This document shows, in pieces, positions 39,209 to 40,843 of a stretch of 64,000 nucleotides of DNA. The notes below the pieces were generated by a model. That model worked only from the letters and a program-made list of their open reading frames with translations. It was not told the origin of the DNA and searched no databases. The position numbers and the translations under genes were made by a program. Each line of letters starts with the position of its first letter. Position 1 is the first letter of the stretch. This DNA is from Phycisphaerales bacterium (lineage in GTDB: Bacteria > Planctomycetota > Phycisphaerae > UBA1845), in contig JADZBE010000017.1 in NCBI GenBank assembly GCA_020852275.1, positions 64,551 to 128,550 of the forward strand, written 5' to 3'.

Positions 39209-40843
39209 TCACTTGGGAGCGGTCGGTGCGGCCGGCGCGGGCGGCGCGGGCGGCGGGTTCTTGGCCGACGCCTGCCACTGGTGTTCCGGGCGCGCGAGGA
39301 TTTCCTCGATCACGGTCATGACGGCCTTGCCCTGCGCCTCCTTGCCTTCCTTCATCGCGTGTTCTGCAATCTCCTTCGCCTGCGGGATTACCGCCTGATA
39401 GAATCGCTCGGCCACCTCATACATGCCGTGCCAGTGCGTGTAATCCGGCGCCATCATGGACGCGCCGTGCCGCGCGCGCCGGCCCTCATGGTGCCACAGA
39501 TAATACCATGACCACTCGATCTCCTCGTCAAACTCAAACTTGGTGATCAGCCCCTGCTCCCGCAACGCATTGATGATCTTCAGCCCCGACTTGGCAAACT
39601 TCTCATTGAAAAGCACGACCAAATCGTCGTATTGCTTGTAGAAGCCGTTCACATAGTCCGGCGTGTGGCAATGCAGGCAGACCTCTTTCATTCGATCCCG
39701 CTTCTGCATGGCCGTATCAGTCACCAGCGCGGCGCGCTTCTGCGGATCCGTCTCCTTGACCACCGCGTGCTTCTCATCCGTGTCCATGGCCAGGCTGACC
39801 GGCGGGCGGTTGGTCCAGGAGATGCGCTGCCCCGGGTCGTGCGTCACCGGCGCTCCGCGGCTGTGCGCGGACATGTGACACGTCGCGCAGGTCGGGGCGG
39901 CCGCATAGTCCTTGCCGAGGACCCAGTCCTTCGAGTCGAGGTTCATGTCGTCCTTCAGGTCGCGGTAGGCCACGCCGTGCTTGGATTCCTCATAGATTTC
40001 CTTTTGAGGATGGTCCGGTCCAAGGTGGCACTTGCCGCAGTTTTCCGGTTGTCGGGCGCGCCGCGGAGAAAAGTCGTGACGGCTGTGACACGCGGAGCAC
40101 GAACCGAGCGAACCGTCGAGATTGATGCGACCGATGCCCGTATTCGGCCACGTGCCGGGGTGATATTTGGGCTTGCCTTCATCGTCGCGGACGATTTTCG
40201 CCAGCATTTCCGTGTTCGTCGGCTTTCCATCCGGGCCGGGTTTCAGGTCGTCGGCCGTGACCTTGCTTCCGTCCGCGGTCTGCAATCCCACCTTGCTGCC
40301 GTGGCATTGCTGACAACCCAGAAAAGCGCTGGCAAATCCATTGGCGTCGATAATGTCCGGCCGACCCGGCGTGGGGGAATGCGGATTGAAGAATCCGCGA
40401 TTGCCTTCGACCGTCTCCGCCAGAAAGTTGTCGAGCGAGGCGAGGATGTTCCCGGCTTTGGCGTGATGGCTATGTTCGAACTCGTCGGCTTCGTGCGGGT
40501 GGCAGCGCGCGCAGTCGCGCGGCGTGACCACGGTGGCGATGTGCTGCCCGTAGTGCTCGAAGCCGTCCACGTCGCCCGGGTCCGCCTGATGACACTCGAC
40601 GCAGGCGACGCCCTTTTCCGCGTGCGTGCTGCCCTTCCAGTGGGACACGAGGCCCGGCGTCTGCTGATCATGGCAGGTAATGCAGTCGTGGCTGGTCTGC
40701 GGAGCCATGGTCAGCAGCGTGGACATCGGCATCTGGGTTCGCGCCATGTGCTTGCGCGACTCCATCTCCGCCACCATGATCAGTGCAATGCACAGACCAA
40801 TGCCAAGCACGAATACGATGATTTTCTTGGTGTTAAGCGACAC
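39209..40843 (-). CDS. membrane-anchored octahaem c-type cytochrome, hydroxylamine-oxidoreductase (HAO/HDH) family-like
   Basis: N-terminal TM helix ([19 protein letters not shown]). Eight CxxCH motifs: CITCH, CVECH, CARCH, CQQCH, CSACH, CGKCH, CATCH, CLHCH. It also has [22 protein letters not shown] and C-terminal [19 protein letters not shown] segments that I recall as HAO-family-like. The family assignment is from memory and was not searched. Confidence 0.75.
   Translation of the reverse strand: [544 protein letters not shown]

Follow-up and report, generated by a model that had tools for sequence, protein, structure and literature searches.

An octahaem cytochrome c of the hydroxylamine oxidoreductase family, likely of the reductive type, encoded with a Rieske/cytochrome b pair in a Phycisphaerales bacterium

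Octahaem cytochromes c of the hydroxylamine oxidoreductase (HAO) family comprise oxidative and reductive enzymes, and in the oxidative ones, such as the HAO of N. europaea (NeHAO), a C-terminal Tyr (Tyr467) cross-links to the catalytic haem of a neighbouring subunit. Which of the two types is encoded at 39209..40843, on the minus strand, of the 64,000-nucleotide stretch of Phycisphaerales DNA analysed here (contig JADZBE010000017.1, positions 64,551 to 128,550; the whole stretch is called the window below)? A sequence-only reading of the gene had raised this question and had left it undecided which of several Tyr residues in a conserved C-terminal segment, if any, corresponds to the cross-linking one. 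Our results suggest that none does and that the protein is likely of the reductive type. They also make it reasonably probable that it belongs to a Rieske/cytochrome b complex that oxidises quinol, both as its c-haem subunit and as its terminal reductase.

The gene starts with GTG, 7 nt downstream of an AAGGAG ribosome-binding site that overlaps the TAA of the preceding gene. This start is supported by conservation of the N-terminus (MSLNTKK...) among 56 close homologues, in which M1, L3 and K6 are conserved in at least 90% and E28 is invariant. The product is identical to NCBI MCC7291994.1, a "hypothetical protein" from a Phycisphaerales metagenome-assembled genome (MAG), while its homologues are annotated as hydroxylamine oxidoreductase, hydroxylamine dehydrogenase or multiheme cytochrome. 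It contains exactly eight CxxCH motifs (C54 CITCH, C81 CVECH, C111 CARCH, C177 CQQCH, C249 CSACH, C269 CGKCH, C319 CATCH and C389 CLHCH), and a motif scan of its 544 residues found no CxxCK, CxxxCH or CxxxxCH. Shuffling the protein's own composition 20,000 times gave at most two CxxCH motifs, and of the window's 165 open frames with 150 aa or more no other has more than one. The sole Cys outside the haem motifs, C18, lies inside a membrane helix formed by K7-A25, the one strongly hydrophobic stretch of the protein; residues 3-31 form a confident helix in an AlphaFold2 (AF2) model. The conserved N-terminus and the invariant E28 argue for an uncleaved anchor. The sequence-only reading had thus counted the haem motifs correctly, including the lack of a CxxCK, and had rightly seen a single N-terminal helix and a Pro/Ala-rich C-terminal tail, though the tail differs in every homologue. 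The C-terminal segment that it had called conserved, residues 444-475, is almost invariant in 121 close homologues. The features of the gene, with the evidence for each, are as follows.

39209..40843, minus strand: octahaem cytochrome c of the HAO family, 544 aa, resembling IhOCC of Ignicoccus hospitalis (open reading frame, Pfam, PDB matches, motifs)
40769..40825, minus strand: N-terminal signal-anchor/membrane helix K7-A25, preceded by KK (hydrophobicity, AF2 helix)
40670..40684, minus strand: haem 1 motif CITCH (motif, alignment)
40589..40603, minus strand: haem 2 motif CVECH (motif, alignment)
40499..40513, minus strand: haem 3 motif CARCH (motif, alignment)
40301..40315, minus strand: haem 4 motif CQQCH, aligned with the catalytic (P460) motif CTMCH of NeHAO (motif, alignment)
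40085..40099, minus strand: haem 5 motif CSACH (motif, alignment)
40025..40039, minus strand: haem 6 motif CGKCH (motif, alignment)
40010..40015, minus strand: Asp277-His278, counterpart of the distal-pocket pair Asp267-His268 of NeHAO (alignment)
39875..39889, minus strand: haem 7 motif CATCH (motif, alignment)
39806..39808, minus strand: Arg346, counterpart of the distal-pocket Tyr334 of NeHAO (alignment)
39665..39679, minus strand: haem 8 motif CLHCH (motif, alignment)
39425..39448, minus strand: loop PDYTHWHG, P466-G473, between two long C-terminal helices (alignment, AF2)
39440-39442, minus strand: Tyr468, counterpart of Trp465 of NeHAO (alignment)
39434-39436, minus strand: His470, at the cross-link position (alignment)
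39212..39259, minus strand: Pro/Ala-rich C-terminal tail (differs in every homologue)

Judged by its sequence, the protein is an HAO-family octahaem cytochrome c. Pfam PF13447, the multihaem family that contains HAO, matches at 76.5 bits against a cut-off of 21.9. The profile comparison that the sequence-only reading had proposed was run against the PDB, with NeHAO and the Kuenenia enzymes HOX and HDH among the targets, and it places the protein inside the HAO family, as that reading had assigned it. With phmmer the best match was IhOCC (4QO5; 6.7e-43, 150 bits), followed by the HAOr of Kuenenia stuttgartiensis (Kustc0458, 6H5L; 5e-24, 88 bits), NeHAO (8e-18) and then HOX and HDH, with NrfA marginal; a family profile built from 28 relatives matched 4QO5 at 6.5e-106 over residues 11-507, near end-to-end. 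In the family-profile alignment the eight haem motifs pair one to one with those of NeHAO and IhOCC, and because CQQCH (C177) aligns with CTMCH of NeHAO it corresponds to the catalytic haem 4. The motif at this haem is thus CxxCH and not CxxCK, and the distal Asp-His pair of the family is present: D277 and H278 align with D267 and H268 of NeHAO and Arg346 aligns with Tyr334, all three residues being invariant in the 56 close homologues. Foldseek ranked 4QO5 and NeHAO first for the AF2 model, with TM scores of 0.26-0.31 (4QO5, 4N4N), which lends weak support to a predicted HAO fold. Membership of the NrfA/ONR group was considered and rejected because CxxCK, which gives those enzymes a Lys-ligated catalytic haem, is absent; the matches to that group were weak (E about 1e-3 to 1e-7) and involved N-terminal haems.

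IhOCC (Igni_0955) is the closest solved relative and, like the protein studied here, has eight CxxCH motifs and no Tyr at the cross-link position, but it is archaeal, contains several long insertions and has Thr in place of His470 and Trp in place of Tyr468. HAOr also belongs to the family members without a Tyr cross-link; it is more distant, has the loop PDVSWWWG and pairs with a dihaem partner. The oxidative enzymes NeHAO, HOX and HDH share the eight-haem scaffold, the distal Asp-His pair and the helix-loop-helix that carries the cross-link site. They differ in having Tyr467 where His stands here, Tyr334 where Arg346 stands here and another genetic context, and the membrane helix of oxidative HAOs is C-terminal whereas here it is N-terminal.

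The sequence and profile searches of the PDB stop near residue 414 of NeHAO, short of the C-terminal loop, and C-termini of ammonia-oxidiser HAOs and HAOr-like proteins were therefore retrieved by a search queried with PDB sequence fragments, which returned only short partial proteins that cover the loop. The Tyr of VNPGGWTYTEGWGPM (GGWTYTEGW), from a real ammonia-oxidiser HAO, was verified as residue 467 of the 1FGJ numbering. The cross-link loop of NeHAO sits between two long C-terminal helices, and the same helix-loop-helix occurs in the query, with helices at 441-462 and 474-498 in the AF2 model and residues 466-472 assigned by DSSP to a short helix. MAFFT L-INS-i placed P466, D467, Y468, T469 and H470 on P, G, Y (or W), T and Y467, so that His470 falls on the cross-linking Tyr, and hhalign, comparing the family profile with ammonia-oxidiser HAO, gave the identical register with a probability of 99.7. 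The loops align with MAFFT L-INS-i as follows.

Query: P-D-Y468-T-H470-W-H-G
NeHAO type: PG-G-W-T-Y467-T-E-G
Other ammonia-oxidiser HAOs: P-G-Y-T-Y-T-V-G, with the second Y in the cross-link column
HAOr: P-D-V-S-W-W-W-G, with Trp in the cross-link column
IhOCC: Q-D-W-T-T-F-K-R-G, with Thr in the cross-link column

The C-terminal segment does contain Tyr residues, as the sequence-only reading had pointed out, but none of them aligns with Tyr467: Tyr447, Tyr448 and Tyr475 lie in the flanking helices, and Tyr468 pairs with Trp465 of NeHAO, with the Trp that IhOCC, itself not cross-linked, has there, and with the first Tyr in the GYTYT found in some ammonia oxidisers. Among 89 representative, more distant relatives the cross-link column holds His in 29, Gln in 24, Trp in 14 and Tyr in 2, and column 468 is aromatic in 78 (64 Tyr, 8 Phe and 6 Trp). 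A phylogenetic study found that reductive HAOs have His at the key site and that Tyr occurs there in oxidative clades only (PMC12758564), and in HAOr and epsilon-Hao reductase activity goes together with loss of the Tyr (PMC8042395). Since the cross-link column holds His470 and not Tyr, on the scaffold shared with reductive HAOs, a reductive, non-cross-linked type is predicted. We call this likely rather than proven because the call hinges on aligning a short loop of eight residues, and it counts against the call that Tyr468, conserved in 120 of the 121 close homologues, stands two residues away.

That conserved Tyr, lying in a loop homologous to the Tyr467 loop, is also the best argument for an oxidative HAO/HDH-type enzyme, in which Tyr468 or another C-terminal Tyr would cross-link the neighbour's haem 4 and hydroxylamine or hydrazine oxidation would feed the quinone pool. 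We regard such an enzyme as very improbable. The two alignment methods independently put His470 at the cross-link position, and since Tyr occupies both columns in some HAOs of ammonia oxidisers, the aromatic residue further upstream is not the one that forms the cross-link; an oxidative reading through Tyr468 was rejected on the MAFFT and hhalign alignments and on the column counts in the 89 relatives. Some Phycisphaerae MAGs have been claimed to carry Hzs-like genes (PMC10732223), but a subsequent survey failed to confirm anammox genes for this class (PMC11266412), and none of the window open reading frames (ORFs) that were scanned is an amo, hzs or cytochrome c554-type gene. The two relatives with Tyr at the cross-link column (one of them, P0186, with PDYAYTG) show that oxidative-type variants may exist within an otherwise reductive clade.

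The strongest functional evidence is the operon context, which the sequence-only reading had missed. The octahaem gene is the third and last cistron of an operon and is translationally coupled to the two before it, which encode a Rieske protein and a cytochrome b6 fused to subunit IV.

42322..42819, minus strand: Rieske [2Fe-2S] protein, 165 aa counted from MEKDG, with a twin-arginine RRGF signal-anchor and the motifs CPHLGC/CPCHNG
40856..42325, minus strand: fused cytochrome b6/subunit IV, 489 aa counted from the ATG that overlaps the Rieske stop, with a PEWY Qo motif

The Rieske stop and the cytochrome b start overlap as ATGA, and 12 nt separate the cytochrome b stop from the octahaem start, with the TAA followed by GGAG and, 7 nt on, by the GTG. 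There is no gene for cytochrome c1 or f in the operon, and the octahaem protein thus takes that slot. As in canonical bc1/b6f complexes, the Rieske protein is anchored by a Tat signal, b6 and subunit IV modules with PEWY are present and the gene for an anchored c-type subunit comes last; here, however, that subunit is an octahaem HAO-type protein rather than a monohaem c1 or f, and b6 is fused to subunit IV. In the Rieske motif CPCHNGIF the Ser and Tyr typical of high-potential forms are missing, which suggests a low, menaquinol-type potential.

A comparable set of subunits is known from Kuenenia, in which Kuste4574, an HAO-like octahaem subunit, co-migrates with the Rieske/cytochrome b6/subunit IV complex R/b-3 and nitrite reduction has been proposed. 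The Rieske, cytochrome b6, subunit IV and HAO-like octahaem proteins are encoded together there as here, but R/b-3 comprises, in addition, an NAD(P) oxidoreductase and a further multihaem cytochrome. No gene for such an oxidoreductase subunit or for an extra hexa- or octahaem cytochrome c was found in the operon of the window (Rieske, cytochrome b and octahaem genes, with a CBS-pair protein gene and a 138-aa ORF upstream).

The arrangement is widely conserved. A scan of one genome per species found more than 500 relatives, of which the best 80 loci, with octahaem proteins 65-86% identical, were analysed; these come from Planctomycetota (Phycisphaerae, Planctomycetia and Brocadiia), Gemmatimonadota, Acidobacteriota, Binatia, Omnitrophota and others. 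A cytochrome b gene, mostly together with a Rieske gene, lies directly upstream of the octahaem gene and in the same orientation in about 76 of the 80 loci, and the fused form of cytochrome b is common to the closest 13. Directly downstream, beginning about 80-130 bp after the octahaem stop, 41 of the 80 encode a NapA equivalog (scoring 958 bits, above the cut-off of 904) and a NapB-like multihaem cytochrome (for example L002, 8946-11929), and no napC or napGH occurs among the conserved neighbours of the 80 loci. In loci of the Phycisphaerae type (L002, L003, L005, L008, L009 and L012) napB is followed by a gene for an outer-membrane porin of the alginate-export family; the window has neither these nap genes nor the porin gene. 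Two loci have other neighbours. In L015 (2715-5596) the octahaem gene follows genes for a [NiFe] hydrogenase large subunit and hypB, and in L048 (1565-5929), from Omnitrophota, it follows genes for a COX1-COX3 fusion oxidase and a porin of the alginate-export type.

A rival reading is a pure electron-transfer subunit that replaces c1 or f and wires the complex to NapAB, oxidases or soluble carriers, with haem 4 non-catalytic. In its favour, the octahaem gene stands in the operon where a c-type subunit is expected; 41 of 80 loci have napAB next to it but no napC or napGH among the conserved neighbours; about half of the loci, including the window, have no adjacent reductase gene; and the family is found in largely aerobic heterotroph lineages. 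We nevertheless consider a mere wire unlikely, because the invariant Asp277-His278 and the near-invariant loop exceed the constraint expected of one and because every characterised member of the HAO family, including the closest, IhOCC, is an enzyme.

The reading that we prefer, and hold to be reasonably probable, is the one given at the outset, a c-haem subunit that is at the same time the terminal reductase of the quinol-oxidising Rieske/cytochrome b complex. Translational coupling, the conserved anchor and the conserved gene order suggest that the proteins would form a physical complex. The uncleaved N-terminal helix would keep the octahaem protein on the periplasmic face of the membrane; (mena)quinol would be oxidised at the Qo site of cytochrome b, where PEWY is present; and the Rieske cluster would hand one electron to the seven electron-transfer haems of the octahaem protein. 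Haem 4 (CQQCH) would then reduce nitrite or a related nitrogen oxide, probably also hydroxylamine or nitric oxide (NO), most likely to ammonium, and in relatives with downstream napAB the haem chain would probably also feed NapB and NapA. As quinol would be oxidised via a Rieske/cytochrome b complex, the process would conserve energy, presumably by electrogenic Q-cycle coupling; the Qcr-dependent Nap respiration reported for Campylobacterota is a precedent. Nitrite reduction at haem 4 is suggested by the missing cross-link, by the nap neighbours and by activities reported for two relatives: IhOCC is reportedly a membrane-associated nitrite and hydroxylamine reductase (Parey et al., 2016), and epsilon-Hao is reported to reduce nitrite and hydroxylamine (Haase et al., 2017).

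Ammonium is favoured over NO as the product because IhOCC is a closer relative than HAOr. It is also conceivable, though quite unlikely, that the protein is a one-electron, NO-forming nitrite reductase, as has been shown for HAOr and proposed for Kuste4574, that replaces NirK/NirS in partial denitrification and makes no ammonium. Its match with IhOCC (150 bits) is, however, much better than that with HAOr (88 bits), IhOCC and epsilon-Hao reportedly reduce both nitrite and hydroxylamine, and co-location with nap is typical of ammonifiers. An NO-forming enzyme would fit with HAOr, which lacks the cross-link and makes NO (PMC8042395), with the membership of Kuste4574 in a Rieske/cytochrome b complex, and with Phycisphaerae genomes that have hao-like octahaem genes, narGH and norB but no nirK or nirS (PMC11266412).

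Several observations weigh against a terminal reductase attached to the Rieske/cytochrome b complex. No napA is present in the whole 64-kb window, and no other nitrogen-oxide or nitrogen-cycle partner gene was found among the window ORFs scanned, so that the substrate is deduced from relatives. Even there napAB is absent from roughly half of the loci, the closest relative, L001, being also without napA, and in two loci, L015 and L048, the octahaem gene occurs without Rieske and cytochrome b genes. HAO-family proteins are homotrimers, with their 24 haems in a ring, and Rieske/cytochrome b complexes are dimers, so that a stable complex of the two is not self-evident, and AlphaFold3 failed to dock Kuste4574 onto its own R/b-3 complex. 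The AF2 model of the protein, built with 56 homologues, has a pLDDT of 72 and a disordered haem core, which makes the pocket uninspectable.

If a reductase complex of this kind exists, it may be of a more general nature. We tentatively suggest, while thinking it rather doubtful, that the locus represents an unrecognised and widespread respiratory module in which a dimeric Rieske/cytochrome b complex has a trimeric HAO-type nitrite reductase as its c-type subunit. In such a module His470, together with Tyr468 and His472, would enter the neighbour's haem-4 pocket in trans, at the place of the cross-linking Tyr, and Arg346 would replace Tyr334 to bind the anion. Reduction of nitrite, and in relatives that of nitrate by Nap, would be tied to a Q cycle and would thereby conserve energy. 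If true, Planctomycetota, Gemmatimonadota and Acidobacteriota would possess a third major route for reducing nitrite, one missed by surveys of nrfA, nirK and nirS.

Related gene strings have been noted before. Caldithrix abyssi has a nap-Rieske-cytochrome b-epsilonHao string (PMC5317091), and Nitrospina has an "atypical octaheme" beside a bc-like operon. The epsilon-Hao of "Hao-enabled ammonification" (Caldithrix abyssi, Deferribacteres and Campylobacterota) resembles the protein studied here in being reductive, in lacking the Tyr and in lying beside nap genes. It is described as periplasmic, however, whereas an N-terminal membrane anchor is predicted here, and its electron routes other than that of Caldithrix (NapM, NapGH or a decahaem cytochrome) have no fused b6/subunit IV complex. 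A survey of Phycisphaerae suggested a nitrite reductase for the hao-like gene but left the Rieske/cytochrome b context unmentioned and reported the bc1 complex as absent (PMC11266412); such a gene is also reported for Poriferisphaera corsica, a cultured planctomycete. We found no open-access paper that describes the conserved Rieske-cytochrome b-octahaem cytochrome-NapAB operon across these phyla.

Annotation of the homologues as HAO-type enzymes invites nitrification or anammox readings for Phycisphaerae and other Planctomycetota. Such claims have been made and disputed (PMC10732223, PMC11266412), one study having counted hao genes among its arguments that Phycisphaerae have anammox potential (PMC10732223). 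The His at the cross-link site and the fixed Rieske/cytochrome b(-NapAB) context argue against these readings, and it is more likely that the genes are markers of nitrite reduction that depends on quinol. Should the complex prove real, it would render periplasmic reduction of nitrite and nitrate electrogenic in several phyla that abound in soil and water, it should be counted in metagenomic inventories of the nitrogen cycle, and it would offer a simpler model, maybe in cultivable organisms, for the poorly understood R/b-3 complex of Kuenenia. Specialists will not be surprised by the protein itself; with its fixed operon, its invariant His loop and its wide spread across phyla, however, it is a useful candidate, open to testing, for a nitrite-reducing respiratory complex that has been overlooked.

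The region upstream of the operon suggests how it may be regulated.

42941..43588, minus strand: CBS-pair protein, maybe co-transcribed with the operon; not conserved beside it in related loci
43599..44015, minus strand: 138-aa ORF, receiver-like by eye, with no Pfam match
44040..44054, minus strand: sigma-54-type -24/-12 site CGGCACGCGGCTTGC, with 1 mismatch, 25 nt upstream of the 138-aa ORF
44467..44481, plus strand: perfect sigma-54 consensus TGGCACAACCCTTGC (TGGCAC-N5-TTGC), before the divergent sensor kinase gene
44499..45914, plus strand: histidine kinase with a protoglobin domain (haem gas sensor), divergent
46117..47484, plus strand: NtrC-type response regulator, a sigma-54 activator

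The site at 44040..44054 is a candidate promoter of the gene string. The divergent sigma-54 sites, the protoglobin kinase and the NtrC-type activator together suggest control by a gas (O2 or NO). Across the window, sigma-54 sites with at most 2 mismatches are no more frequent than expected by chance, and only the intergenic sites at 44.0 and 44.5 kb are noteworthy. A sigma-54-type site was found in 19 of 73 related loci, against about 9 expected, and in a subgroup of the Planctomyces type the Rieske gene is preceded, at a distance of about 76 nt, by a conserved TGGCACATGATCTGC. A scan for sigma-70 promoters found none, and no convincing minus-strand intrinsic terminator follows the octahaem gene. 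The 121-nt spacer between the CBS and Rieske genes (42820-42940) starts with a perfect hairpin, TCCGGAAGACTCCGGA, without a T tract on the coding strand.

Elsewhere in the window, a four-subunit [NiFe] hydrogenase operon (6618-12784, minus strand) encodes a large subunit (8411-9718), a small subunit (9905-10678), an FAD/NAD subunit (10678-11532) and a 4Fe-4S subunit (11519-12784), a layout that is that of the NAD(P)-linked group 3b "sulfhydrogenases". It is accompanied by hypA, hypB, hypE, hypD and a short hypF (14805-18751, minus strand), the HypF ORF (17630-18751, 373 aa) holding the C-terminal Kae1-like domains only. Secreted proteins without a Pfam match, one of them ending in a dockerin-like DxDGDLDLADF, are encoded at 47706-50833 on the minus strand, and the G+C content at 48-50 kb is 0.567, against about 0.65 elsewhere in the window. 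Two close GroEL (Cpn60) paralogues (28313-29974 and 30771-32552, both on the minus strand) lie downstream of grpE (25977-26624) and dnaJ (26799-27956).

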